From a bacterium (lineage in GTDB: Bacteria > Patescibacteriota > Minisyncoccia > Phycocordibacterales > UBA6899): DNA of 64,000 nucleotides. The translations under genes were made by a program, and so were the position numbers. A model generated the notes under the pieces. The model ran no database searches. It was not told where the DNA came from and saw only the letters and a program-made list of their open reading frames with translations. This document shows, in pieces, positions 435 through 15,017 of the stretch. Each line of letters opens with the position of its first letter. Position 1 is the first letter of the stretch. The stretch covers positions 40,614 to 104,613 of the forward strand of contig JAYUQG010000005.1 of NCBI GenBank assembly GCA_043756865.1, read 5' to 3'.

Positions 435-890
435 ATGTGTTACTGTATGCAGTACATGAGGAAAATTTCTGCCACATTCGTCTTGTTGGGCTATATTCTG
501 CTAGTGCCATTTTGTTTTTTTGGCAATGCGATGATAACCCACGCAGACTCAGATAATATGAGCAGTAACGCCGTCCATCATATTGATGACTGTGGGATGC
601 CGTTTGGCTGTGGACATGCGAATGAGGCGGGGTTGGTCGATGTGGCCGTGCACCACATCAGCATGTATCTGTCGCTTACCCAAACACCGCTCGCAGCTTT
701 TTCACTTTTTGTGACAATCTTAGTACTGCAACTCCTCGCCATACTCGGAGTATCTGGAAATTTACTTCGTACACTTTTTTTGCAGACTTCTTCACTTCTC
801 GTACGCAGAATGGAAGAGCCACACATAAGCACAAAACAAAAGATACTTGCATGGCTCTCGCTTTTTGAAGCAAGCCCAAATTTTGCATAA
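435..890 (+). CDS. small two-TM membrane protein with a His/Cys-rich loop (HHIDDCGMPFGCGH); start uncertain (ATG at 435, 447 or 456)
   Basis: Two hydrophobic helices; intrinsic terminator downstream at 1120-1145; antisense ORF 578..1051 looks non-protein-like. Confidence 0.35.
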   Translation: MCYCMQYMRKISATFVLLGYILLVPFCFFGNAMITHADSDNMSSNAVHHIDDCGMPFGCGHANEAGLVDVAVHHISMYLSLTQTPLAAFSLFVTILVLQLLAILGVSGNLLRTLFLQTSSLLVRRMEEPHISTKQKILAWLSLFEASPNFA

Positions 891-1119
891 CGCGACGCTC
901 TTAGGGCTCGTCCGTAAATAACTTCCACAGATGAGGTGGAATGCGCCCCGAATACGGACACTGCGACCGAACAAAATGTTAAAGCATACTGTAAGTATGG
1001 TGCGAAATTTTGTGACCGAGTAGTGACTGTAGTCGGGGATGCAGTGCGCATCAGATGGGGGAGTTATTTATGGAAGAGCACTTACAACACTTTTTTTAAA
1101 GTGTTGTCTTGCGTCGCAG

Positions 1120-1145
1120 AAAGACCCCACAGGGTCTTTTTCGTT
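1120..1145 (+). terminator. intrinsic terminator (aaagacccc-cac-ggggtcttttt)
   Basis: GC hairpin followed by a T-run. Confidence 0.55.
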
Positions 1146-1245
1146 ATTCCCCAAATGAGTGAGCGAGATAAAAATGTCTTCTTTTTTATCTCCGAGCGAA
1201 TGACGGGAAAAAAAGGTTTTACGATTATTTGCTATCAAGACATTT

Positions 1246-2961
1246 ATGCATGAAAAAATTCTGCAATACATCAAAACACCAATTGGCATGAGTGTGCTCG
1301 GTTTTGCCATCCTCACCATTTCGTGGGTTGTGTATGCGAACACTAAAACTGACGCACTGCCTGAACAAACGGTCTTCACAAGCAGTGACCGTGTCGAAAT
1401 TGCCACAGTTGACACAAGCGCTACGTCAAGCGGAGCGGTGGGAGGCTCTTGGCCTGGTGAGATTCTTTCACTCGGTAGCTACCCCCTTCAACCCGAAAGA
1501 GAGGGAATAATCGCAGAGTGGCGAATACATATTGGTGAGCGTGTTCGTGCGGGACAAGTACTCGGCACACTCTCTCGCCCCCCTGCAACTCCAGAGCTCA
1601 TAAGCATGCTCGCGGGTGAAGCTGAAGGACTCGCAAAGGCGCGAAGTAATGCCGAGGCGGAAGAAACGTATGTGACGGAGCGCATTGAACAACTACTCGC
1701 ACAGCGCGTGTCAATTGAGCGCTCTTCCGCAAAAACAGGCAACTTGCTCAACTCCGCTCTGCAAACAAACTCTGGCGTCATTGCAGTAAAAAGAAAAAAT
1801 CTGCGAGTCATACTCGATAACGCTATTGCGATAACTTATCCCTACCTCTCAGGTAATGGAGTAGTGCCGACAACCTATCAGTCCATTGTGCTCCGATCTT
1901 CCATTGGGGCTCAAAATTCACGATTGCGTGAGGAATTTCCCGGGATACTCCACAATGTGCTTTCAGACCTCCGTAGCGACGAAATAATTCCTGAAAAATC
2001 GGGACTCGCATATTTTGACCACACAATAAAACTCGCCAACGCGTCACTTTCAGATGGAAGCACGCTGACGCAGGGTGACCTAAGTGCACTCAAGGATTCA
2101 CTTACGAGCGGAAGAAGTAATTTTATCGAAGCGCTCGGCGAGCTACGAGAGGCGGAGCTCGTGAGTGTGAGTACCGCTCAGGAGTATTCGACAGACTTTA
2201 AGGAAATCGACGCACAAATCACCGAGCTACGAAAAACCCTTGCAATTGCGAAAGGGGAGGTTGTGGCAAAAGAAGCGGCCTACAAGACAGTGAACAATGC
2301 AGTGAACGGTGGCAATACGATCCTCGCTCCCCGTTCTGGTATTGTTTCAACAATACTGAAAAAGCAAGGAGAGTTTGTTTCCCCCGGTACGCCCTTAGCA
2401 GTAATTACCAGTGAAACAAAAAACGAGAAAAGCATACGTTTTGCGATTCCCGTAACTGCGCAAAAACCACTTATCAATTCGTCGCTTCGTATTGTTCGTT
2501 CCGGTTTTCCTACTGATATAAAAATAGCCAGACTAATCGGAATCGGTTCGGCGGTCGATGAAATGGGGACATATATGTCTGATGCTCTCTTTACGGAGGC
2601 GAATGATTGGCCTGTTGGTGGCTCAGTGCGCGTGCTTCAGGGTGAACGCAATGGAAATGTAGCCATTCCGCTCACTTCGGTCATGTGGGACGAACGGGGC
2701 GTACCTTATGTCTGGGGAGTTTCAAGTGCCGATCGCCTGTATGCGAAAAAATTAAAGTTGGGACGCACCCTCGGAACCTCTGTCGAGGTATACGAGGGAC
2801 TTAGTGGGGGAGATCGGTATGTTGTTTCACCAACCCCACTTATGCGTGAAGACATACTCCTGAGCGAACTTGCACCGAAAAGAGATACATCAGCATTGAA
2901 TCCTGCAGTAAGTGGGGACGGAATGCACATGGAGGGAATGGATATGGATAGTCACGAATAA
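1246..2961 (+). CDS. cusB: RND efflux membrane fusion (periplasmic adaptor) protein, CusB-like; C-terminus Met/His-rich (GMHMEGMDMDSHE)
   Basis: N-terminal TM, biotin-lipoyl-like and beta-barrel MFP architecture; a 12-nt gap to the RND pump gene. Confidence 0.75.
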   Translation: MHEKILQYIKTPIGMSVLGFAILTISWVVYANTKTDALPEQTVFTSSDRVEIATVDTSATSSGAVGGSWPGEILSLGSYPLQPEREGIIAEWRIHIGERVRAGQVLGTLSRPPATPELISMLAGEAEGLAKARSNAEAEETYVTERIEQLLAQRVSIERSSAKTGNLLNSALQTNSGVIAVKRKNLRVILDNAIAITYPYLSGNGVVPTTYQSIVLRSSIGAQNSRLREEFPGILHNVLSDLRSDEIIPEKSGLAYFDHTIKLANASLSDGSTLTQGDLSALKDSLTSGRSNFIEALGELREAELVSVSTAQEYSTDFKEIDAQITELRKTLAIAKGEVVAKEAAYKTVNNAVNGGNTILAPRSGIVSTILKKQGEFVSPGTPLAVITSETKNEKSIRFAIPVTAQKPLINSSLRIVRSGFPTDIKIARLIGIGSAVDEMGTYMSDALFTEANDWPVGGSVRVLQGERNGNVAIPLTSVMWDERGVPYVWGVSSADRLYAKKLKLGRTLGTSVEVYEGLSGGDRYVVSPTPLMREDILLSELAPKRDTSALNPAVSGDGMHMEGMDMDSHE

Positions 2962-2972
2962 TATTACCAACT

Positions 2973-5900
2973 ATGTTCAACAATATAATCTCGTGGTCAC
3001 TTAGAAATAAGCTTGTCGTGCTACTCACAACATTCCTGATTGTTGTTTTTGGTACATGGAGTTTACTCACCATGAAGGTGGATATTCTTCCTGATATCAA
3101 CAAACCTACCGTTACTATCTTTGCAGAAGGCGAAGGAATGGCGAGCGAAGAAGTAGAGAGACTAATCCTCACCCCTATTGAAGCAGCAGTCGCGGGCGCT
3201 CCGGGGGTCGAACGTATTCGCGGAAGTGCAGCACTCGGTCGCGCGATTGTTAACCTAGAGTTTGCATGGGGTTCTGACAATTATCGGAACAGACAAATCG
3301 TGCAGGAAAGGTTGACCCAAGTGGTACTCCCGAGCAACGTCACACCCGTACTTGGCCCCCAATCTTCACTCCTTGGAGAAGTGGTCTGGGTCGGACTGAC
3401 TTCAAGTAGCGCTGCGGTTTCTGCAATGGAAATGCGTACAATAGCAGATTTCACGGTCCGTCCCGCACTTCTCAAAATCCCCGGTGTTTCCACAGTGCTT
3501 GTGATGGGTGGCGACGTGCGCGAGTGGCAGATTAATCTCAATGCGGAACGCATGCGTCAGAGTGGTGTCATGTTCGAAGATGTGCGGAAAAACATTGCTT
3601 CAGCCATCACGAATAAGGGCGGCGGTATTCTTGCTGAGAACGGAAAAGAATATCCCATTCGCATTCTTGTTGCACCCAAGGACATTGCCGAACTTCGCGA
3701 GATCGCAGTCGGAAGAGGTATGTCAACAGGTGCAGTCATCCGCTTGGCTGACCTCGCAGAAGTTATCGAAGGACCAAGCCCAGTACGTGGCTCTGCTGCG
3801 ATCAATGGAAAACCGGGGGTCATTCTGCGGGTCATTCGCCAGTCTGACGCAGAGACCTTGAAAATAACCAAAGGGATCGATGAGACATTGGACGCGCTTC
3901 GGCCGGCAATCCCCGAAGGTGTTCTGATTGAAGGAGATCTTTTTCGACAAGAACAATTCATCCATGCAGGACTAGGAAATGTCACCGAAGCGCTTCGCGA
4001 TGGAACAATTCTTGTTGTGCTCATTCTGCTTATTTTTCTCATGAACGTACGCACGACTGCGATCACACTCACGGCTATTCCGCTTTCGATACTCGTCACG
4101 GCGATCATATTTAAGCAATTTGGGCTCTCGGTGAATGTGATGACGCTCGGTGGAATTGCCGTTGCTGTAGGCGAACTTGTGGATGATGCAATCGTAGGGG
4201 TCGAGAACGTGTTTCAGCGACTGCGACTCTGGAAGAAAACAGGCGCAAAAGAAGATCGGGAAGCAGTGGTGCTTTCCGCTTCCAGTGAAGTGCGCAACTC
4301 GATAGTGTATGCAACCATTCTCGTTGCGGTGGTCTTTCTTCCTATTTTCTTTGTGCCCGGTCTTGAAGGGAGATTAATTGCATCGATTGGCGCGGCATAC
4401 CTCGTTTCTCTGCTTGCCTCTATGCTCGTTTCACTTACTGTAACCCCCGTTCTCTCAGCGCTCTTGCTTCATGGTAAAACACTGGAGGGACACGAAGAAG
4501 AAACGCGATTAGTACGTGCGATCAAAGAGTGGATGTCTCCGCGCATATATTGGTGCATTGCCCGCGTGCGGTTTGTCGGTACGCTTACACTCATTGCACT
4601 TTCGCTTACTGCTGGGATGTACTTGTTTGCAGGCAAGGAAGGTATCCCAACGTTCAACGAAGGCTCCGCCACGGTTATGGCATTTACTCCTGTCGGAACT
4701 GATCTGGCGACAACCAATGCATATGTAGCAAAAGTCGCCAAGGAAATTGAAAAAGTTCCTGGCGTGGCAAAAGTATCGAACATGACCGGTAGGGCGGATG
4801 CAGACCCTCATGATGGAGGTTCGAATGCGAGTGAGATGCAAATTCTTATAAAACCAGAATACATTCCCCATCGCGTGCAGGTCTTCAAGAACATTCAAAA
4901 AGTACTTTCACGTCATGACGGAGCGGATTTTGGCCTTGGGCAACCGATCACTCATCGTATGCAGGAATTACTCTCTGGAGTACGTGCACCGATCGCGATC
5001 AAGGTATTTGGGGACGACCTCGAAGACATGAAAAATGCCGCCGATCGAGTTATTCTTGAGCTAAAAAAACAGCCCGGTGTAAAAAATGCGCAAATCGGGA
5101 AAGATACGATGACTCCAGAATTCCATATCTATCTCGATCGCAATCGACTCGCTGAATCAGGAATTTCATCTGGCGAGGTCGCTCTGGAACTTGAAATGGG
5201 GCTCATGGGCGATACGCTTGGACAAATGCGTCTTGGCGGAGCATCTGTGGATGTCGTTGCGAGGTTCGATCTGGAGTCTAAAGGCACCATGGCGTCGCTT
5301 CGTGACATCGCTTTGTCATTTGAGAACGTGACATCGCTCGGTCTTGCGGGGGATGTCACGGTCGCAGGTGGGCGCAATCGTTACACTCACGAAGCGGGCA
5401 AGCGAGTATTGGTTGTGTCGGCAAATTATGAGGGCAAAGATGTTGTCGGTGCAGTCGAGAATGTAAAATCAGCACTTGATAATGAAAAGTTACAGAGTGG
5501 AGTGACACTGTCCTATGAGGGAACATACAAAAGCCAGAAAGAAAGCTCACGCCGCCTTTCGCTTGTCTTTGTTTTGGGAATAGCAATGATCTTCGGCATT
5601 CTGTATCATGCATTTAAATCCGTACCCATCGTGCTGCTCATCATGGCAAACATTCCAACCGTGCTCATCGGCGGAATGATCGGAATATGGCTCACTGGCG
5701 GAGTAGTCAATCTTGCGCATCTCGTCGGATTCATATCGCTTGCGGGAATCGTATCGCGAAATGGGATCATGCTTATCGGACGAGTGCTCACGCTTGTTCG
5801 CGAAGGAAATGCATTCACTCCGGAAACAATCGTGCGTGCCACACTTGATCGCGTTACTCCGGTACTTATGACTTCTCTTGTCACAGCACTCGCGCTCATA

Positions 5901-6077
5901 CCGTTGCTCTTGTCGGGTAATGATCCGGGGAAAGAACTGCTCCACCCGCTCGCCGTAGTGATATTCGGAGGACTATTTTCATCCACTGCGATCTCGCTGT
6001 TTCTCACGCCAGCGCTTTTTTATCGATTTGGAAAGAAAGCCACGCTTGTAGCTAATTCAGACACTTCTGGGTTCTAA
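2973..6077 (+). CDS. cusA: heavy-metal efflux RND permease, CusA/CzcA (HME) family
   Basis: 1034 aa with 12-TM RND topology; N-terminus LTMKVDILPDINKPTV resembles the CusA/CzcA start INTPVDALPDLSD. Confidence 0.85.
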   Translation: MFNNIISWSLRNKLVVLLTTFLIVVFGTWSLLTMKVDILPDINKPTVTIFAEGEGMASEEVERLILTPIEAAVAGAPGVERIRGSAALGRAIVNLEFAWGSDNYRNRQIVQERLTQVVLPSNVTPVLGPQSSLLGEVVWVGLTSSSAAVSAMEMRTIADFTVRPALLKIPGVSTVLVMGGDVREWQINLNAERMRQSGVMFEDVRKNIASAITNKGGGILAENGKEYPIRILVAPKDIAELREIAVGRGMSTGAVIRLADLAEVIEGPSPVRGSAAINGKPGVILRVIRQSDAETLKITKGIDETLDALRPAIPEGVLIEGDLFRQEQFIHAGLGNVTEALRDGTILVVLILLIFLMNVRTTAITLTAIPLSILVTAIIFKQFGLSVNVMTLGGIAVAVGELVDDAIVGVENVFQRLRLWKKTGAKEDREAVVLSASSEVRNSIVYATILVAVVFLPIFFVPGLEGRLIASIGAAYLVSLLASMLVSLTVTPVLSALLLHGKTLEGHEEETRLVRAIKEWMSPRIYWCIARVRFVGTLTLIALSLTAGMYLFAGKEGIPTFNEGSATVMAFTPVGTDLATTNAYVAKVAKEIEKVPGVAKVSNMTGRADADPHDGGSNASEMQILIKPEYIPHRVQVFKNIQKVLSRHDGADFGLGQPITHRMQELLSGVRAPIAIKVFGDDLEDMKNAADRVILELKKQPGVKNAQIGKDTMTPEFHIYLDRNRLAESGISSGEVALELEMGLMGDTLGQMRLGGASVDVVARFDLESKGTMASLRDIALSFENVTSLGLAGDVTVAGGRNRYTHEAGKRVLVVSANYEGKDVVGAVENVKSALDNEKLQSGVTLSYEGTYKSQKESSRRLSLVFVLGIAMIFGILYHAFKSVPIVLLIMANIPTVLIGGMIGIWLTGGVVNLAHLVGFISLAGIVSRNGIMLIGRVLTLVREGNAFTPETIVRATLDRVTPVLMTSLVTALALIPLLLSGNDPGKELLHPLAVVIFGGLFSSTAISLFLTPALFYRFGKKATLVANSDTSGF

Positions 6078-6099
6078 ATTAAATAATAATCTCATTAAC

Positions 6100-6450
6100 A
6101 TGAACAACACAACAGCAATTATTCTTTCAGCGATCGTCGGCGTGACACTTGGCGGTTTTGGTGGATTCGCTACAGGAAAGCAAGCGAGCGATATCGGAAT
6201 GACCGACAAAGAGGTGCATGGCCTTATTGAAATGATGTCGTCGGAAGGTAAAAGCATGATGGAGATGGGCAAAATGATGCAAGAGGGTGGGGCCATGCTC
6301 GAAGAACGCGGCACTACATATAGTGATCAGCAGATGATTGTAAAAGGAAAGGATTTGAAAGCAGTCGGAGTAAAGTCAGTTAAAGACGGTGAAGCAATGA
6401 TGGGACACGAGAAAGGAATGATGGATTCAATGGAGGGAATGGCGCACTAA
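6100..6450 (+). CDS. membrane-anchored Met-rich protein (MxxM and MMxxM repeats), candidate Cu(I)/Ag(I)-binding accessory protein
   Basis: N-terminal TM helix then a sequence with about 20% Met (MMSSEGKSMMEMGKMMQEGGAM...MMGHEKGMMDSMEGMAH); 23 nt downstream of cusA. Confidence 0.6.
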   Translation: MNNTTAIILSAIVGVTLGGFGGFATGKQASDIGMTDKEVHGLIEMMSSEGKSMMEMGKMMQEGGAMLEERGTTYSDQQMIVKGKDLKAVGVKSVKDGEAMMGHEKGMMDSMEGMAH

Positions 6451-6460
6451 TCATAAAAAT

Positions 6461-6634
6461 ATGAATGAATTTCTTAATGCATTGCTCATCACACTCGCAC
6501 TTGTCCTCGGTGGGTATTTACTCTTCGGAAGTCTTAGTGAACCTCAGTCAGGCACAGGAACTATGGATATGAGCATAGGGGGCATGAGTATACCCGCGGA
6601 AAGCATGGAGTCGATGTCGGGTATGAAACATTGA
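6461..6634 (+). CDS. 57-aa TM helix plus Met-rich tail (MDMSIGGMSIPAESMESMSGMKH)
   Basis: Found by reading the sequence (below the ORF-track size cut-off); start 11 nt after the previous stop; same Met-rich theme. Confidence 0.45.
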   Translation: MNEFLNALLITLALVLGGYLLFGSLSEPQSGTGTMDMSIGGMSIPAESMESMSGMKH

Positions 6635-6777
6635 GTTAGAGTTACTTTCACATGTGAGTAAATGAAGCATCTAATTTTTAACCGACCGAATGGACTAAAA
6701 ATGGATGTACAACCGTGTTGTACTCTTAGCAAAAAGGGAACTGAAGTTGCAGTTTGATTTCCTGTGGAGACATAACA

Positions 6778-6799
6778 AAGCCCACCGAGGTGGGCTTTC
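6778..6799. terminator. bidirectional hairpin (aaagcccacc-gag-gtgggcttt)
   Basis: Perfect 10-bp GC-rich stem. Confidence 0.4.
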
Positions 6800-7886: not shown

Positions 7887-8690
7887 TTATGCGGTGCTTG
7901 TGTTTTCGAGGATCTGCTCTATGCGTTCCACGAGCTGTGCTGGCGTGAAATTTGCTTTCACAAGAAAATCTACAGCGCCGAGGCTTTGCCCCAGCGCGAT
8001 GTCAGTCTCTTGTGCCAAGTTGGAAAATATCGCCACTGGAGTAGCGCTTACTTCCGGTCTGGATTTAAGAGTTTTTAGGACATCAAATCCATTCATGCCC
8101 GGCATTAACACATCTAAGAGTATAAGGTCGGGATGAATTTCGTTTGCGAGACGCAACCCTTCCTCACCGTTATTCGCAGTAAACACATGATATCCCGCAT
8201 GCCGAAAGCGGTCTGAGGCAATATCGGAAAGTGTGGCGTCGTCTTCAATGAGTAAGATGTTTGTTTGCTCAGGAGGCTTACGCTTCATTGATTTTTGATC
8301 TGTGCTGCTACTTTCGGGTCCCCCAATGAGCGCCTGCACTTTTTCGACGACCTCCTGAGGTGAAAAATGTGCTTTGACTATGTAGTCTTTTACGCCGAGT
8401 CCAAGGATTCGAGATATTTCGACTGGCTCACCAGAGTTCGAAATGACCATCACGGGAATGAGTTGGAGCTGTGGGTCAACACTAATTGCCTCGAGTACTT
8501 CATATCCGTTCATTATGGGCATCATGATGTCCAGCAGCAGTAAATCTGGAGTTACGTTGCGCATGGTGGTCAGGCCTGCAGCCCCATCTTTCTCGCATAC
8601 ACAATAATACCCCGCTTCTTCGATGCGTTCCTTGAGTACCTGTGAAAGTGCGGGGTCGTCATCGACGAGAAGAATGATTTTTTTGCTCAT
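7887..8690 (-). CDS. response regulator with two tandem receiver (REC) domains and no output domain
   Basis: Two copies of the D-D...D...K receiver pattern (LLVDDDP...LLLDIMMP and LLIEDDA...ILLDVLMP). Confidence 0.8.
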   Translation of the reverse strand: MSKKIILLVDDDPALSQVLKERIEEAGYYCVCEKDGAAGLTTMRNVTPDLLLLDIMMPIMNGYEVLEAISVDPQLQLIPVMVISNSGEPVEISRILGLGVKDYIVKAHFSPQEVVEKVQALIGGPESSSTDQKSMKRKPPEQTNILLIEDDATLSDIASDRFRHAGYHVFTANNGEEGLRLANEIHPDLILLDVLMPGMNGFDVLKTLKSRPEVSATPVAIFSNLAQETDIALGQSLGAVDFLVKANFTPAQLVERIEQILENTSTA

Positions 8691-8738
8691 TGAATTAAGT
8701 ATACAAAAGTATAAGGATAATGTATGCCCAGTTGTGCA

Positions 8739-10370
8739 CTATTGTGTGAGCACAGGCAGTGCGGCACGGAATGTGGTTCCGACACCTACTTTACTTGTAA
8801 AAGTAAGGCTTCCTCCGTGATGCTCTGCGACACTTTTCGCCACGAACAAGCCAAGTCCGCTTCCGTCGGTGACAATCTTCACTGCGTTGGTGGCCCTGTA
8901 AAACTTAGAAAAAATATTTTTTTGCTCATGCTCGGGAATGCCTATGCCCGTATCGGTGATGCTAACCACCAGCGTATCTTCCTCCTGCGTAAGTCCAATA
9001 GTTACCTTTCCACCCTGTGGTGTGTAGCGCATTGCGTTTTCAAGAATATTCTCAAAAAGAAATCGTATTTTCTCAGGGTCTACAAGCACTTTGGGGTAAC
9101 CCCCCTCTCCTTGTGCTTCTGCTTGTGTGTAAATAAGTTCAATGCCTTTTCCCTTTGCGACGGGGGTAAAGTCGCCAAGCATACTCCTGAGAATATCTTC
9201 AAGCGCTAGTGCGTATAAAGTGAACTTCATTTTTCCACTCTCAATACGGGTAACGGTAAGCATGTCATCTACAAGTCTTATCATGCGATTATTACTCTCT
9301 TCGCCCTTGATGAGATATCCCTTTTGTTCAGGTGCAAGCTCACCTAGGTGTCCCTCAAGTAGTACACTAAAAATCCACCTGACTGCAGATAGGGGGGTGC
9401 GTAGCTGGTGAGCTGCTATCGAAAGGAATTCTGATTTAATTTTGTCGAGTTCTTGTAGCTTTTCATTCGCGACTGTCAGTTCCTTGCCTCGCTTAAGGAG
9501 TAGTGTTGCACGGTTATCCAGCTCTGCATTTGCCGCATTGAGTGTGATCACTTTTTCGTCTAATTCCTTGGTACGTTCATGTACCTGTGACTCCAGTCCT
9601 ATCGTATAGCTTTCTACGGTGCTCGCCATCTCATTGAATACTCGTGCGAGCTCTCCAATTTCGTCGCGAGAAGTGATGTTGGCACGCACCGTATGGTCTC
9701 CCTCCGAAAACCTTTTTGCAACCCCAATGAGTGCAAGTGTCGGCTTCGTGAGCATTCGAGCTATGAAGACTGAGACAATGATTGCGGTGACAAACAGCGT
9801 GAGCATAAAATACAGCACGCTCACGATGGTCTGTTCGATGATGAGCCCCACTCCTGCTATTTGCTCATCTACCTTTCTCCGTGACTCTAGTGCAAGCTCA
9901 TCAAGTGTTTGCGAAATGTCGCTTATGCGTGCATAGGTATTGAGGATTTGATTATTCAGTAATCCTGCCGCTTCACCTCGCAAGTTGAGTGACAACAGCA
10001 GATTAATTTCTCTGCCGAGCGATGCACCTTCCGTCATCACACTACGGTATTCAGGGCGGTCTTCTGAAATCGCGCCCTCCCCATTCACGAGTGCAGTTAA
10101 CTTCTGCTCAAGTAATTCATTGTCGCTAGCAATACGCTTGCGATATTCTTCTCCACTAATGGTGAGGTATTGGTCAAGATGGTTCTCCATATCCCTGACA
10201 ATTTGCTGCACCTCGATGATACGGTCTCGGAGTTCTTCACTCGGAGTGAGGCTGGCAACCACATTTTGTATTACGGTAAGTGAAAGAAATGCCCCAGCCA
10301 CCATAACAATCGCCAAGATCATGACAACAGCAAAGCCTGAAAGTATTTTTTCGCGTATGTTCCAATGCAT
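8739..10370 (-). CDS. sensor histidine kinase (TM, HAMP, coiled-coil, HisKA, HATPase_c)
   Basis: H-box SIAAHQLRTPLSAV; N, G1 and G2 boxes (DTGIGIP, GSGLGL). Confidence 0.8.
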   Translation of the reverse strand: MHWNIREKILSGFAVVMILAIVMVAGAFLSLTVIQNVVASLTPSEELRDRIIEVQQIVRDMENHLDQYLTISGEEYRKRIASDNELLEQKLTALVNGEGAISEDRPEYRSVMTEGASLGREINLLLSLNLRGEAAGLLNNQILNTYARISDISQTLDELALESRRKVDEQIAGVGLIIEQTIVSVLYFMLTLFVTAIIVSVFIARMLTKPTLALIGVAKRFSEGDHTVRANITSRDEIGELARVFNEMASTVESYTIGLESQVHERTKELDEKVITLNAANAELDNRATLLLKRGKELTVANEKLQELDKIKSEFLSIAAHQLRTPLSAVRWIFSVLLEGHLGELAPEQKGYLIKGEESNNRMIRLVDDMLTVTRIESGKMKFTLYALALEDILRSMLGDFTPVAKGKGIELIYTQAEAQGEGGYPKVLVDPEKIRFLFENILENAMRYTPQGGKVTIGLTQEEDTLVVSITDTGIGIPEHEQKNIFSKFYRATNAVKIVTDGSGLGLFVAKSVAEHHGGSLTFTSKVGVGTTFRAALPVLTQ

Positions 10371-10387
10371 GATGTTATTTCGAATGA

Positions 10388-11461
10388 CTACTTCGCAACT
10401 TGAGCGTTCTTGAGAATATTGGGTGGAAGCACAATGCCGAGCTTTTCTGCAAGTACGAGATTGACATACAGTGCTCCTTTTTCATTTTTCACAATAGGAA
10501 TACTTGCAGGGCTGGTGCCGTCGAGAATACGAAGGGTAGTAACCCCTGCCCACTCTCCCTGTTCGTTGGGAATTTTGGTTATTCCGAGTACCGACTCCTT
10601 CATCGTCCAAGGGTTGGTTGTTCCGACCGGTACGCGTATGTTTGCTTTGGCGAATTCCTCTGCTGCATTGTCGTTCCAGTCAAGAATTCCTGCGTTATTT
10701 TCAAAAATTATCAGGTCAGTCTCACTCTGGAGTGCGAGAAATGCCTTTTTCCATGACTCCATGTCTTTCACAAAGTAAGATTTTTCAAATTTCAAAGCAA
10801 AAAGTTTTTCGTAGTAGGTAAGGTTTTTTCTCTCCGTTTCGGTATCCGCAGAAAGGTATCCAAGGCGGTCACCCTTTGTGAATGGCTTGAGGTGGTCAAT
10901 AATTTGGGTGGTCAGACTTACCTCAACCATTCCTGTGGTGTTGGTATATGGGGCGCCGTACCCTGATGCGTCCCAATTTAACCCCACAAACACTACAGGG
11001 AGGGGAGCATCCTTGTAGGACTCCTGCACTATGTACTTAAATGCGTTGTCGTCAGAGACAATGAGTACATCGGGAAGAAATGTTTTGATTTCCGCCGCCG
11101 CTCTTGCCGCCGCCGCTTTTTTCCATTCTTCGGTGGGATTGCGCTTTGTGTCCATGCGTACGACACGCAACTCTACACCCGAACCTGCTAATTCCTTTTT
11201 GATTCCCGTGGTAATCCCATCACTCCACTCATAACCCTCGTGATAGGAGTCTATGAAGAGGATCTTTTTCCCCATATATTTTTCTGCCACGAGCGGAGTT
11301 TCCACGGTAGTGGGGGAGACAGTGGGAGTCTTAAAAGAAATAAACATATACGCACCAAACAAAAGTACGCAAAGTAAGCCAATGATTACATAAACCTTTG
11401 ATGAATTCATGCTTTGCTGTTCGACTGCTTGCGTTGGGGGAACCGTAGGCTCTGTTTCCAT
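10388..11461 (-). CDS. membrane-anchored periplasmic solute-binding-like protein (ABC_sub_bind/BMP-like) co-operonic with the two-component system
   Basis: TM anchor then an alpha/beta binding-protein-like fold; start moved to METEP because the longer ORF N-terminus looks non-coding. Confidence 0.5.
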   Translation of the reverse strand: METEPTVPPTQAVEQQSMNSSKVYVIIGLLCVLLFGAYMFISFKTPTVSPTTVETPLVAEKYMGKKILFIDSYHEGYEWSDGITTGIKKELAGSGVELRVVRMDTKRNPTEEWKKAAAARAAAEIKTFLPDVLIVSDDNAFKYIVQESYKDAPLPVVFVGLNWDASGYGAPYTNTTGMVEVSLTTQIIDHLKPFTKGDRLGYLSADTETERKNLTYYEKLFALKFEKSYFVKDMESWKKAFLALQSETDLIIFENNAGILDWNDNAAEEFAKANIRVPVGTTNPWTMKESVLGITKIPNEQGEWAGVTTLRILDGTSPASIPIVKNEKGALYVNLVLAEKLGIVLPPNILKNAQVAK

Positions 11462-14093: not shown

Positions 14094-15017
14094 TTATTTT
14101 GTGTGCAGGTGCATATAGATATCCTCAAGCGCAAGTACTGCGTCTCCTGCAGCAATATTGTTTTGGTGATAGAGGACGTCGGTGCAGTCTCCCGCAGCCC
14201 AAATGCCGGGAGTCTTGGTCGCTTGTGTGCGCGGGTCGGTGACCACTTGTCCGTATGCATTAAGTTCAACAAGGCCTTTTACATAGTCGGTGGCAGGCAC
14301 AAGTCCAACTTCCACGAAGATTCCTCCGCAAGGGATTTCCTTGACTTGGCCGTCATTCATATCCTTGTACACCATAGTGGTCACAAAGTTTTCACCCCTG
14401 ACTTCGACAAGCTCAGTGTTGGTGATGCCTTTCATTTTGGGATTCGAAAGTACTTTTTGTACGGTCACGGGGTCAGCGCGATACTCTGCGCCTCGTTGGA
14501 GCAGTGTGACTGATTTCGTGTATGCCAGTAGTTGGGCGGCAGTCTCAAACCCTGCATTGCCACCACCGATGACCACCACGTCCTTTCCGGCAAAAAGTGG
14601 TCCATCACATGAAGCACAATAGGTAATTCCTTTGTTTTCATATTCTGCAGCACCGGGGATTTCAAGCTTGCGACGCTTGCTTCCAGACGCAATCAATACG
14701 GTTTTTGTCTCGTGCGTCGCACCCGCATCAGTGGTGACTTTGAAGAATTCTCCAGACTTCTCGATTTTCGTGACGAGTTCATGCTCCTTGATCTCAACAA
14801 CATCTGATTTATACGCCTCGAGGTGTGCCTTCAGGTCCTCTGCGAGCTTCGTGCCGGGGATATTGATAGTCCCAATCCAGTTCTGAATACCGTCAGACAC
14901 AGTGGACTGTCCGCCCCACTCATACGTTACAAAAAGTGTTTTAAGTCGTTTGCGAGCCGCATAGACACCTGCTGCTACTCCCGCCGGACCCCCACCTATG
15001 ATAATTAAATCAAACAT
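14094..15017 (-). CDS. trxB: thioredoxin-disulfide reductase
   Basis: GGGPAG FAD motif; redox-active CASCDG; second GGGNAG NADPH motif. Confidence 0.85.
   Translation of the reverse strand: MFDLIIIGGGPAGVAAGVYAARKRLKTLFVTYEWGGQSTVSDGIQNWIGTINIPGTKLAEDLKAHLEAYKSDVVEIKEHELVTKIEKSGEFFKVTTDAGATHETKTVLIASGSKRRKLEIPGAAEYENKGITYCASCDGPLFAGKDVVVIGGGNAGFETAAQLLAYTKSVTLLQRGAEYRADPVTVQKVLSNPKMKGITNTELVEVRGENFVTTMVYKDMNDGQVKEIPCGGIFVEVGLVPATDYVKGLVELNAYGQVVTDPRTQATKTPGIWAAGDCTDVLYHQNNIAAGDAVLALEDIYMHLHTK

Follow-up and report, generated by a model that had tools for sequence, protein, structure and literature searches.

In the E. coli efflux system CusCFBA, the methionine (Met) triads of CusB and CusF feed the pump CusA (PMC7558416). 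SilE binds Ag(I) through Met/His motifs on one face of a helix (PMC5008109), while CopM goes with an HME5 copper pump (PMC4335983). For the NieA-type pumps, which are predicted to export nickel, a signature table is available (PMC7060636).

The locus described here belongs to a Patescibacterium and lies in a 64-kb stretch of contig JAYUQG010000005.1, which is referred to as the window (Table 1). Patescibacteria (CPR) are treated as a monoderm lineage, and the absence of an outer-membrane channel is therefore expected. We read the module, with a probability of roughly 0.55, as a monoderm Cu(I)/Ag(I) efflux system in which tethered Met-rich carriers would take the role of CusF and the CusB tail. 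The exported metal is most likely Cu(I) and probably also Ag(I); we infer the metal, its binding and transfer and the assembly of the adaptor from the arrangement and conservation of the genes, from residue patterns, from the predicted fold and topology and from genomic association.

Table 1. Features of the efflux module and other genes of the window
Feature	Position	Strand	Description
Two-TM Cys/His-loop protein	435..890	+	ORF, 151 aa
Periplasmic-adaptor (membrane-fusion) protein	1246..2961	+	ORF, 571 aa, ending GMHMEGMDMDSHE
Adaptor C-terminal Met/His tail	2920..2958	+	GMHMEGMDMDSHE, low-complexity linker before it
RND permease	2973..6077	+	ORF, 1034 aa
Met-rich membrane-anchored protein (p116)	6100..6450	+	ORF, 116 aa
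Clade-specific small protein (p57)	6461..6634	+	ORF, 57 aa, tail MDMSIGGMSIPAESMESMSGMKH
Hairpin	6777..6798	.	Perfect 9-bp stem, AAAGCCCACC-GAGG-TGGGCTTT
Thioredoxin-reductase-like gene	14094-15017		In window
CDF transporter	25029		PF01545

An earlier note on this DNA had placed all five reading frames and their Met/His motifs correctly and had rightly reported no CusC or CusF homologue, whereas its spacings, its Met content for p116 and its label of a CusBA-type pair needed revision. The spacings of 23 and 11 nt after the pump and p116 genes are intergenic gaps of 22 and 10 nt. Using phmmer with E. coli CusC, E. coli CusF and one Bdellovibrio OMF as queries, no match was obtained, even at E <= 10, for the window or for any of the Patescibacteria loci, and the envelope without an outer-membrane channel that had been suggested agrees with the monoderm host. 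The CDF transporter listed by the note is real, but it lies 19 kb from the module behind housekeeping genes. Neither a Cu ATPase nor CsoR is present anywhere in the window's 64 kb, a point against copper. The hairpin, situated 143 nt 3' of p57, the last gene of the module, is possibly a two-way terminator closing the operon. At the other end, the His/Cys-loop membrane protein noted just upstream is likewise present and, judging by its homologues, stands beside the adaptor family-wide (5' of the adaptor gene in 29 of 39 loci). Its true start is likely the ATG at 456 (MRKIS...), and charge bias indicates that the acidic loop, which contains the motifs C-x(3-8)-C and HHIS-x-Y, faces outward and that the basic tail, with WLSLFE-x-SP at its end, is cytoplasmic. 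The protein has no match in Pfam or NCBIfam, and its family is unannotated.

The pump scores 718 bits against ACR_tran and 618 bits against TIGR00914, the latter under its cutoff of 701 (Pfam and NCBIfam profiles), and its best matches in the PDB are CusA (362 bits) and ZneA (338 bits). With 41.3% identity to the NieA-type pump of Cupriavidus, against 26.9% for CusA, and with a fourth transmembrane (TM) helix, AVGELVDDAIVGVEN, of the signature AVG-x3-DDA-x3-VEN, it is an HME-like RND pump closest to the NieA/HME5-like subgroup. Residue mapping yields an AcrB-like proton relay (D404, D405, R929) and a candidate metal site comprised of E136, M569, H613, E621, M622, H661, M663, and E665. This site is predicted to be a His/Glu/Met hybrid in which the position of CusA M573 is kept, as position 569 is Met in 39 of 40 sequences. 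Position 665, corresponding to CusA M672, is Met in 34 of the 40 and Glu in the window's clade, while the equivalent of CusA M623 is Ala, Ser or Thr in the family; the window's pump has Met at only one of the three triad positions. A CusA/HME4 identity was considered and rejected, the pump being 27% identical to CusA, lacking both the DAA-IEN signature and a transmembrane Met relay, and having another proton relay than E939/K984. In the HME-versus-HAE check proposed earlier, the pump did not class as HAE-1, although the CusA Met triad is incomplete, and neither outcome that the note had named as refuting its reading was observed. The CusBA-type label is imprecise, since the pump groups with NieA-type pumps, not CusA/HME4, and the adaptor is without detectable likeness to CusB. 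Three properties of the pump also speak against copper: its conserved His2/Glu2 ligand set would fit divalent ions of borderline character, the nearest relatives, NieA, themselves characterised by prediction, are proposed Ni(II) exporters, and Glu, not Met, occupies the CusA M672 position in the window.

The adaptor is anchored by an N-terminal TM helix; its split lipoyl, beta-barrel and membrane-proximal domains are accompanied by a helical insert of ~240 residues where CusB has a short hairpin. It is matched by HlyD_3 at 36 bits, over the cutoff, and by TIGR01730 at 79 bits, under the cutoff of 94.9, and is 24% identical to NieB across residues 329-535. A CusB-like label was rejected, as no CusB match was found and the N-terminal Met triad of CusB is missing. 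In a single-sequence AF2 model of poor quality (pLDDT 43), long helices span residues 116-201 and 276-354, their bases reaching 80-90. The C-terminal Met motif is a family-wide feature, usually in the form ...MGGMEM: at least two Met occur among the last 12 residues in 32 of 34 family adaptors, with a mean of 2.71 against 0.36 expected (~7.5-fold).

The p116 protein contains 14.7% Met (17/116), reaching ~19% only downstream of its TM helix, rather than the ~20% given earlier; the background is 2.47% in 22 long ORFs of the window, and the binomial probability of such an excess is 5e-9. Its dN/dS is 0.05-0.15 and, judged by substitution patterns, both small ORFs evolve as coding genes. A negative profile search had been taken as support for novelty. 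While Pfam and NCBIfam indeed hold no family matching p116, it is no orphan; it belongs to a previously undescribed, unannotated, phylum-wide family that comprises at least 124 clusters when grouped at 90% identity and 82 when grouped at 50%. The predicted build is a TM anchor, a linker and a hairpin of two antiparallel helices (residues 36-73 and 77-114) that faces outward, modelled by AF2 from 100 sequences with a moderate pLDDT of 64.7, rising to 80-89 across residues 50-100. This all-helical prediction fits the earlier statement that p116 lacks the CusF OB fold. Charge bias, being N-in/C-out in 79 of 100 homologues and opposite in 3, places the Met domain outside the cell, as had been proposed. 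A p116 homologue directly follows the pump gene in 33 of 39 Patescibacteria loci in a search started from the pump, and the linkage held in all 7 independent look-ups from the small-protein side. The Met-rich ORFs are also present and in frame in relatives, co-occurrence in related genomes being one of the checks that the note had proposed. Of its wider interpretation, the envelope without an outer-membrane channel, tight pump linkage, outward Met domain and non-OB fold stand, while the CusA and CusB labels and the novelty drawn from a negative search do not.

The conserved Mets of p116 helix 1 follow a/d heptad spacing (46, 53, 56, 60, 67, 70), and they could therefore simply form a coiled-coil core. 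In that case p116 would be a structural or regulatory pump subunit that binds no metal, either an AcrZ- or YajC-like TM partner or a hairpin bracing or capping the adaptor funnel. Such a role is improbable in our view, although the strict gene order with the pump is compatible with it, the fold search gave no significant match and returned only generic helical hairpins, and the conserved GG-x-G[YF] motif of the TM helix (G22, Y23, and G26 at 90% or more) suggests specific helix packing and not a passive anchor. However, M45, M46, M56, M60, M107, and M111 are Met in 93-100% of 100 homologues, in which His makes up 0.4% on average and Cys is limited to 2 sequences. This near-invariance is unexpected for a purely hydrophobic core, where positions would normally swap L, I, V and M, and points to specific selection on Met itself. 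Furthermore, the tails of the adaptors show this Met enrichment too, as does p57, in segments that plainly do not form coiled coils. Loss of the partner also co-varies with the pump: three of the four loci without p116 have lost one pump Met (569/665), against 0 of 36 with it when M663 is counted for the window's clade (Fisher p = 4e-4; counting that clade as altered gives p = 0.013; four partner-less loci, phylogeny ignored). Metal-linked proteins replace the absent partner in two loci: L028 has DUF411, and L032 a DUF7282 protein with a Met tail.

It could also be speculated that the exported ion is divalent (Ni, Co, Zn or Cu(II)), in keeping with the proposal for NieA, and that the Met-rich proteins serve another purpose or metal. 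The identity to NieA-type pumps and the common TM4 signature fit this idea, as do E136, H613, E621, and H661, which match the E-H-E-H ligands of NieA, the Glu at 665 in the window's clade, and the motif HRMQE, which is close to HRMDE of Synechocystis HME5. Yet, we consider it unlikely, as the H-x4-H and H-x3-H motifs of NieA are each cut to one His in the pump (HDGGSN and HRMQE), and as Mets at the CusA positions are confined, among the compared pumps, to the Patescibacteria family; at positions 569 and 665, NieA and the Bdellovibrio pump carry Ser and His. The partners are His-poor and Met-only, and an HME5 member, Synechocystis CopA, is a copper pump. In addition, the genes next to the module in related loci are those for copper and not those for nickel or cobalt. 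They comprise 17 P-type ATPases, spread over 16 loci (CPC + MxxSS + HMA, or CPH), repressors of the CsoR family in 13 loci, several of these repressors having a C-H-C fingerprint, as well as HMA-DsbD_2, DUF411, DUF305, and a multicopper oxidase.

The p57 protein consists of a TM helix with an LGGY motif followed by an outward Met-rich tail ending MESMSGMKH. Its Met content is 12.3% (binomial probability 5e-4), but composition alone is weak evidence because the window has five further ORFs of at least 50 aa, all spurious, with more than 10% Met. A degenerating or chance reading frame, or a late acquisition of the clade that matters little, would likewise agree with its absence from the wider family, with the lack of Pfam or NCBIfam families and of homologues beyond the window's clade, with the weak constraint (pN/pS 0.2-0.5) and with a tail variable in length and sequence. 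That p57 is no functional component is nevertheless doubtful. An in-frame gene of 53-61 aa follows the 116-aa gene in L002, L005, and L006-L010, indels are in frame across four relatives, and position, frame and a spacing of ~10 nt are kept in four lineages that are almost saturated at synonymous sites (pS 0.5-0.86). Of the aligned columns, 16 do not vary, among them those of the TM GY..FG and MDMS motifs. No homology to p116 was demonstrable (hhalign probability 11%); p57 has only GG[YF] in the TM helix and the terminal M-[DE]-S-M-x-G-M-x-H in common with it, and the terminal motif recurs in the adaptor. Finally, that the exposed Met-rich proteins are sacrificial antioxidant sinks guarding the envelope by reversible Met sulfoxide formation, rather than metal carriers, is very improbable: the high surface Met on extracytoplasmic segments, the thioredoxin-reductase-like gene and DsbD/AhpC-type genes in some related loci would suit it, yet no Msr genes were seen beside the module, the coupling to an RND metal pump and copper genes is strict, and Met conservation is position-specific, not bulk enrichment.

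In the Cu(I)/Ag(I) efflux system that we favour, a proton-driven RND trimer of the NieA/HME5-like kind would take metal on the external side of the membrane. Its cleft site would join the NieA-type ligands E136, H613, E621, and H661 with Mets at positions used by CusA, namely M569, plus M665 in most relatives or M663 and M622 in the window's clade. The unusually long helical hairpin of the TM-anchored adaptor probably forms an exit funnel through the wall, replacing an outer-membrane channel. Three tethered thioether-rich elements may catch Cu(I) at the membrane surface, for example from the Cu P1B-ATPases whose genes adjoin the module in relatives, and hand it to the pump cleft: the C-terminal MxGMxM tail of the adaptor, the Met-lined helix face of the p116 hairpin and, in the window's clade, p57. 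Together, these carriers would fill the role of CusF and the N-terminal Met triad of CusB, and they would be membrane-anchored because a soluble chaperone would not be retained in a monoderm, which lacks a closed periplasm. The upstream two-TM protein is a fourth conserved component, possibly acting in sensing or metal handling.

Among known systems, CusCFBA (HME4) resembles the module in that an RND permease and adaptor are encoded with a small Met-using accessory protein, in a flexible Met-bearing adaptor tail near the membrane-proximal domain, and in the equivalents of M573 and, in most relatives, M672 in the cleft. However, the pumps are only 27% identical, TM4 is DDA-VEN here and DAA-IEN in CusA, and the module has no TM Met pairs, E939/K984 relay or CusC, with Ala, Ser or Thr for M623. 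The accessory protein here is a predicted TM-anchored helical hairpin while CusF is a soluble OB fold, and the adaptor Met motif is C-terminal rather than N-terminal as in CusB. The closest relatives outside Patescibacteria, at 41%, are the NieA-type pumps (nieIC-cep-nieBA of Cupriavidus neocaledonicus; 'HME5?' or proposed class 6, PMC7060636), which share the TM4 type A(I/V)GELVDDA-V-VEN, the proximal E-H-E-H ligands and a small accessory gene 3' of the pump. They differ in having a TolC-family channel and cep and nieI genes, in Ser/His against M569/M665, in a beta-rich periplasmic downstream accessory protein, weakly CusF-like in Bdellovibrio, and in Ni as predicted substrate. Synechocystis CopBAC with CopM likewise combines an HME5-type pump for copper with a separate extracytoplasmic Met/His-rich Cu(I)-binding protein, HRMQE resembles cyanobacterial HRMDE, and several of the related loci in Patescibacteria contain DUF305 genes. 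Yet that host is a diderm with an OMF, and CopM is a soluble DUF305 protein encoded in another operon; p116 gives no DUF305 match. The SilE/PcoE sponges are also small helical proteins with Met at i, i+3 or i+4 on one helix face, encoded with a metal RND system. SilE, however, is soluble, disordered when apo and uses His as much as Met (MxxH, HxxM), whereas the p116 family is nearly His-free, TM-anchored and predicted to form a stable hairpin, with no sequence similarity. Finally, Gram-positive adaptors such as YknX, encoded with YknYZ, are similarly anchored by a TM segment in cells lacking an outer membrane, and they too have a membrane-proximal domain and a helical hairpin that stands out; while they pair with ABC/MacB-type transporters, the adaptor here has an RND metal pump as its partner and a Met motif at its terminus.

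The window, a chromosome segment that also encodes FtsZ, FtsA, GyrA, IF-2, HisRS and ClpB, carries what is probably a copper-exporting RND module of HME kind, adapted to a monoderm cell, together with two new protein families. No description of the system in Patescibacteria was found in the literature, and RND metal pumps are known almost wholly as three-part, two-membrane machines. The earlier note had placed five ORFs here, all of which lie where it put them, and the tails it quoted, GMHMEGMDMDSHE and MDMSIGGMSIPAESMESMSGMKH, were found. Gaps of 22 and 10 nt separate the pump from p116, the Met-rich 116-aa protein, and p116 from p57, the 57-aa protein. Upstream regions are AT-rich at all five gene starts, and no recognisable Shine-Dalgarno sequence lies within 25 nt upstream of any of them. 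A Zn-peptidase fragment and an amidase gene flank the module, amid housekeeping genes. Methionine makes up 14.7% of p116 (~19% C-terminal of its TM helix) and 12.3% of p57, against a background of 2.47% derived from 22 long window ORFs (binomial probability 5e-9 and 5e-4, respectively). As five spurious window ORFs of at least 50 aa likewise exceed 10% Met, the Met composition of p57 alone carries little weight. Both ORFs evolve as genes, with a dN/dS of 0.05-0.15 for p116 (four lineages, synonymous sites near-saturated) and, for p57, a pN/pS of 0.2-0.5 and indels exclusively in multiples of three.

Positions of the module genes and of associated features in the window and in related loci (handles beginning with L)
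Feature	Locus	Position	Orientation	Length
Upstream membrane protein	window	435-890	co-directional with the other four	151 aa
Spacer, upstream gene to adaptor	window	891-1245		355 nt
Palindrome in spacer	window	~1086-1109		
Terminator-like hairpin in spacer	window	~1124-1145		
Adaptor	window	1246-2961	co-directional with the other four	571 aa
RND pump	window	2973-6077	co-directional with the other four	1034 aa
p116	window	6100-6450	co-directional with the other four	116 aa
p57	window	6461-6634	co-directional with the other four	57 aa
Perfect hairpin	window	6798-6777		
Hydrophobic ORF	window	7008-6820	minus strand	62 aa
Sigma-70 consensus	window	7046-7019	minus strand	
Response regulator and HAMP histidine kinase	window	7887-10370	minus strand	
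73-aa GTIHHM protein	L014	10836-11054		
73-aa GTIHHM protein	L017	10223-10444		
73-aa GTIHHM protein	L020	10201-10422		
73-aa GTIHHM protein	L034	10214-10432		
Second upstream-family copy	L018	13150-13569		
Second upstream-family copy	L052	13582-14001		
Met-rich gene, YknX-like adaptor, MacB-type ABC transporter	L066	6348-9986		
Transposase/serine-recombinase genes	L002	590-1540		
Transposase/serine-recombinase genes	L062	1-510		
Transposase/serine-recombinase genes	L064	6633-7952		
Beta-rich post-pump protein	L044 (Bdellovibrio)	10141-10545		
Beta-rich post-pump protein	L060 (Cupriavidus)	8179-8556		

The relatives of the pump at 65-91% identity are exclusively Patescibacteria/Parcubacteria MAGs, from Paceibacterota and from Kaiser-, Lloyd-, Lipton-, Vogel-, Magasanik-, Moran- and Uhrbacteria. 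These belong to the CPR, regarded as a monoderm clade (bioRxiv 10.1101/2021.05.31.446380). Phmmer searches (E <= 10) with E. coli CusC and CusF and with the Bdellovibrio outer-membrane factor returned no homologue in the window or in ~50 related loci, bearing out the reported absence of CusC and CusF, and neither an outer-membrane factor nor a cep homologue was found in the window or the Patescibacteria loci. Because the lineage is monoderm and the searches for an outer-membrane factor were empty, a missing channel gene is expected here and does not reflect an assembly gap.

A single-sequence search with p116 returned 7 near-identical proteins only, and its resulting status as an orphan was overturned by loci gathered through the pump and by profile search. 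A homologue of 104-130 aa lies directly 3' of the pump in 33 of 39 Patescibacteria loci, themselves retrieved through the pump (alignment A2, of p116 homologues), so that the expected Met-rich ORF beside the pump is indeed present in related genomes. Starting instead from p116-family members alone, the order adaptor, pump, small protein was recovered on every contig reached. The profile search gave at least 124 clusters at 90% identity, each annotated 'hypothetical' and each from Patescibacteria, and the negative profile result once proposed as support for novelty was thus not obtained for p116. When HMMER was run exhaustively over 1.84 billion representatives, no more than 82 clusters at 50% identity emerged, nearly all of 100-120 aa and of the same layout. 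Searches of Pfam and NCBIfam with p116, p57, the upstream protein and all members of A2 and of A4, the alignment of upstream-protein homologues, yielded scattered sub-threshold noise only; p116 is thus a member of an unannotated, Patescibacteria-wide family. In 8 loci the neighbour of the Met-rich gene encodes a protein of 73 aa with two TM helices, in which a GTIHHM motif is conserved; it has no Pfam family and is a further unannotated member of these copper islands.

In the AlphaFold2 model of p116 (100 sequences), the TM helix leads through a linker of low confidence into a hairpin of two antiparallel helices (residues 36-73 and 77-114), with a mean pLDDT of 64.7 and values of 80-89 over residues 50-100. 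Foldseek found no PDB match at E <= 0.001 and listed generic hairpins only, Rop, AhlB and WXG100 among them. By charge bias, 79 of 100 members are predicted to have an inward N-terminus and an outward hairpin, and 3 the reverse. Six columns (45, 46, 56, 60, 107 and 111) are near-invariant at 93-100% Met, and columns 59, 67, 70, 72 and 110 hold 50-70% Met; Cys occurs in two sequences only. The Mets of helix 1 recur at a spacing of 3-4 along one helix face, and the TM helix conserves G22, Y23 and G26, a pattern that hints at specific helix packing. On the main rival explanation, p116 would be a subunit with a structural role, its Mets packing as the core of a coiled coil. A further, separate reading would have p116 oligomerise into a Met-cored bundle, held together by glycine zippers in the TM helices and by the Met-lined a/d faces of the hairpin helices. 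Docked on the RND-adaptor pair as a new type of subunit, it would serve as a 'wire' or gated conduit for Cu(I) directly from the neighbouring P1B-ATPase to the pump, or as a funnel cap replacing the outer-membrane factor. Such a bundle appears improbable; if real, it would be a structurally new RND efflux architecture for monoderm bacteria.

The pump matches Pfam ACR_tran (PF00873) over its full length (718 bits, cutoff 28, residues 5-1018). Its top-scoring NCBIfam model is CusA/CzcA TIGR00914 at 618 bits, under the curated cutoff of 701, with multidrug models at no more than 473 bits, and scores against solved structures are 362 bits for CusA, 338 for ZneA and 221 for MdtB. The multidrug HAE-1 class, considered for the DD motif in TM IV, was rejected since these whole-protein scores favour the HME models and CusA/ZneA. 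Identity is 26.9% to E. coli CusA, 39.7% to a Bdellovibrio pump and 41.3% to a Cupriavidus plasmid pump. The Cupriavidus locus holds nieI-like, TolC, cep-like, HlyD and RND genes, adjoins a chromate transporter and agrees in order with the published nieIC-cep-nieBA.

Diagnostic TM IV signatures have been tabulated in Additional file 12 (headed Figure S7, cited in text as Table S7) of PMC7060636: DFG-x3-DGA-x3-VEN for CzcA, AVG-x3-DAA-x3-IEN for CusA and AIG-x3-DDA-x3-VEN for NieA ('HME5?', or proposed class 6). The window pump reads AVG-ELV-DDA-IVG-VEN, with the DD pair present in 40 of 40 Patescibacteria pumps, and agrees with the NieA type (window AVGELVDDAIVGVEN, NieA-type AIGELVDDAVVDVEN). 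It carries neither the HME4 signature of CusA/SilA, A-V/I-G-x3-D-A-A-x3-I-E-N, having DD instead, nor the D-F-G-x3-D-G-A-x3-V/M-E-N of HME1/2/3a (CzcA, CnrA, ZneA). The CusA triad M573/M623/M672 is incomplete, its equivalents being M569, A619 and E665. Position 569 is Met in 39 of 40 family pumps and Ser in NieA and the Bdellovibrio pump; position 665 is Met in 34 of 40 and His in those two, which makes M569 and M665 specific to the Patescibacteria family by this comparison; the equivalent of M623 is Ala, Ser or Thr across family pumps. E665 occurs in 4 of 40 pumps, those of the window's clade, which also carry M663 and M622. Mapping of the ZneA/CusA site positions gives E136-H613-E621-H661-M665 for the family, E-H-E-H-H for NieA and W-D-E-N-M for CusA. 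The three-His proximal site of NieA (HAEGVH, HRLDH) is likewise incomplete in the family, where each motif retains its first His only and the third His of the site gives way to Met or Glu (HDGGSN; HRMQE in the window, HRVEM in the wider family). CusA has three TM Met pairs (M410-M501, M403-M486, M391-M1009) and a D405/E939/K984 relay; of these residues, the pump retains equivalents of M391 and D405 alone, the others being L, L, G/D, S, L, R929 and V964. D404, D405 and R929 resemble D407, D408 and K940 of AcrB. From the residue mapping, therefore, the scaffold of the pump is of NieA type, its cleft site mixes His, Glu and Met, and the cytoplasmic Met pathway is absent. The earlier assignment as CusA-type holds as far as HME over HAE, yet only one of three triad Mets is present in the window pump, and the HME4 TM IV signature, full triad and Met pairs/relay are missing.

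Only general models recognise the adaptor as a membrane-fusion protein, with its lipoyl, beta-barrel and membrane-proximal domains (HlyD_3, 36.3 bits, cutoff 22.2; TIGR01730 over residues 324-536, 79 bits, under the cutoff of 94.9), and it shares 24% identity with NieB over the C-terminal 210 residues. It has an N-terminal TM anchor and a ~240-residue helical insert. Although the structure predicted from the single sequence is poor overall (pLDDT 43), it shows long helices at 116-201 and 276-354 whose bases are confident. Its description as CusB-type does not stand, as phmmer with CusB found no similarity, the N-terminal Met triad of CusB (M21/M36/M38) has no counterpart, residues 31-110 between TM anchor and lipoyl domain being free of Met, and the Met motif is C-terminal. 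That C-terminal Met/His cluster is itself as described and its Met motif is common across the family: 32 of 34 family adaptors have at least two Met among the last 12 residues (mean 2.71, expected 0.36), typically ending ...MGGMEM. In one related locus (L066), genes for an adaptor resembling YknX and for an ABC transporter of MacB type come directly after the Met-rich gene; this locus thus holds a second outer-membrane-less adaptor system.

A homologue of the upstream protein lies 5' of the adaptor in 29 of the 39 loci. The protein spans the membrane twice; its outward loop is acidic and bears CP...C and HHIS-x-Y motifs, and its tail is basic, with WLSLFE-x-SP at the end. In two loci, L018 and L052, a second family copy lies directly 3' of a Cu P-type ATPase, from which it follows that the family may partner copper exporters generally and not the RND pump alone. 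The p57 protein is confined to the window's clade; its TM helix (LGGY..FG) is conserved, whereas the Met tail varies. The final nine residues of p57, MESMSGMKH, are similar to those of p116, MDSMEGMAH (compare HMEGMDM in the adaptor), and profile comparison with the p116 family (hhalign) gave a probability of 11%.

The metal can be approached through neighbours and co-variation. The related loci contain 17 P-type ATPases in 16 loci, many with CPC, MxxSS and an HMA domain, others with CPH or His/Met-rich N-termini with HMBD, as well as CsoR-family repressors in 13 loci (C-H-C pattern in several) and recurrent HMA-DsbD_2 fusions, DUF411, DUF305 and multicopper oxidase. Where the partner is lacking, the p116 slot is held by DUF411 (L028), a Met-tailed DUF7282 (L032) or the ATPase itself (L039). 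A family-specific Met is lost in 3 of 4 partner-less pumps (L031 M665Q, L032 M569I, L039 M665V) and in none of 36 with a partner, M663 being counted for the window's clade (Fisher p = 4e-4, or 0.013 with that clade as altered, in a test that ignores phylogeny). Thioether-only ligand sets favour Cu(I)/Ag(I) rather than Ni, Zn or Cu(II). The putative thioether-only ligands of the Met-rich partners would point the same way, with precedents in CusF, CusB, SilE and CueO (PMC7558416, PMC5008109). Against copper stand the NieA-like His/Glu ligands of the pump, nickel being predicted for NieA (PMC7060636), the Glu at 665 in the window pump itself, and the lack of any copper gene elsewhere in the 64-kb window, where CsoR, Cu-ATPase and HMA-DsbD searches found none.

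The spacer before the adaptor is unusually long, at 355 nt against ~100-180 nt in two related loci (L005 and L002), and contains a palindrome with 10-bp arms, ACAACACTTT-TTTT-AAAGTGTTGT, and a terminator-like hairpin, GACCC-CACA-GGGTC followed by a T-run, which could be an operator or attenuator. Rfam found nothing in the spacer and tRNAs only across the window, and promoter-like sites were no more frequent than in shuffled sequence. Downstream of the operon, a perfect sigma-70 consensus (TTGACA, 16 nt, TATAAT; 12/12) precedes the hydrophobic 62-aa ORF and then a perfect hairpin; this may be a small convergent membrane-protein gene whose two-way terminator would also serve the pump operon, and the public gene call has a 68-aa plus-strand ORF there instead. 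Two genes downstream lies a response regulator with two receiver domains and no output domain, adjoining a HAMP histidine kinase, a pair with no established link to metal sensing. Transposase/serine-recombinase genes flank the module in several relatives, such that it may spread horizontally among Patescibacteria.

In the preferred reading, with p116 as a tethered gatherer of Cu(I), and on the architecture, conservation, predicted fold and topology, and genomic associations shown by this analysis, the RND trimer would pick up Cu(I) at the outer face of the membrane in the Met/His/Glu cleft site, and the TM-anchored, long-hairpin adaptor would form an exit funnel across the wall, substituting for an outer-membrane factor. 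The adaptor tail, the p116 hairpin and p57 would be three tethered Met elements that gather surface Cu(I) and pass it to the cleft, the job that falls in E. coli to CusF and to the N-terminal Met triad of CusB, with membrane anchoring in place of periplasmic confinement. The module, conserved in Patescibacteria, has kept pump and adaptor, is without the channel, and has added two unannotated families and a Met-tipped adaptor, providing a concrete case for RND-adaptor function without an outer membrane. The chaperone role of CusF might be met through membrane tethering, and a His site of NieA type may have moved closer to the Met site of CusA. A probable role is gained for over 100 clusters of 'hypothetical' proteins, and a probable copper-defence system for small-genome symbionts otherwise poor in annotated stress functions.

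Among known copper proteins, CopM/DUF305 (PF03713) was matched by 0 of 27 p116-family members scanned, and separate DUF305 genes lie near the module in L052 and L062. SilE/PcoE are soluble periplasmic proteins with repeated MxxH and HxxM, whereas the p116 family averages 0.4% His, carries a TM anchor instead of a cleaved signal, and has no SilE/PcoE match in NCBIfam or Pfam. CusF is an OB-fold beta barrel with an H/M/M/W site; p116 is predicted to be all-helical and has no Pfam, NCBIfam or phmmer match, in keeping with the earlier note's view that the small proteins do not resemble it. In diderm NieA-type loci, the slot 3' of the pump that the Met-rich protein occupies in Patescibacteria goes to a small, beta-rich secreted protein whose N-terminus is rich in His. 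That of Bdellovibrio bears a weak resemblance to CusF (identity of 24% across 99 aa, with a pairwise E of 7e-4) and has no Pfam match. The Cupriavidus nieI-like, cep and downstream 125-aa proteins were considered as kin of the Patescibacteria small proteins, and BLAST found no relation. With NieA-type systems the module has the TM4 signature in common, but it has neither the NieA His triad nor their three-part operon, in which nieC encodes a TolC-family channel and cep is also present. It falls outside HME4 on every count of membership, yet it is CusCFBA that the module would resemble in its proposed working.
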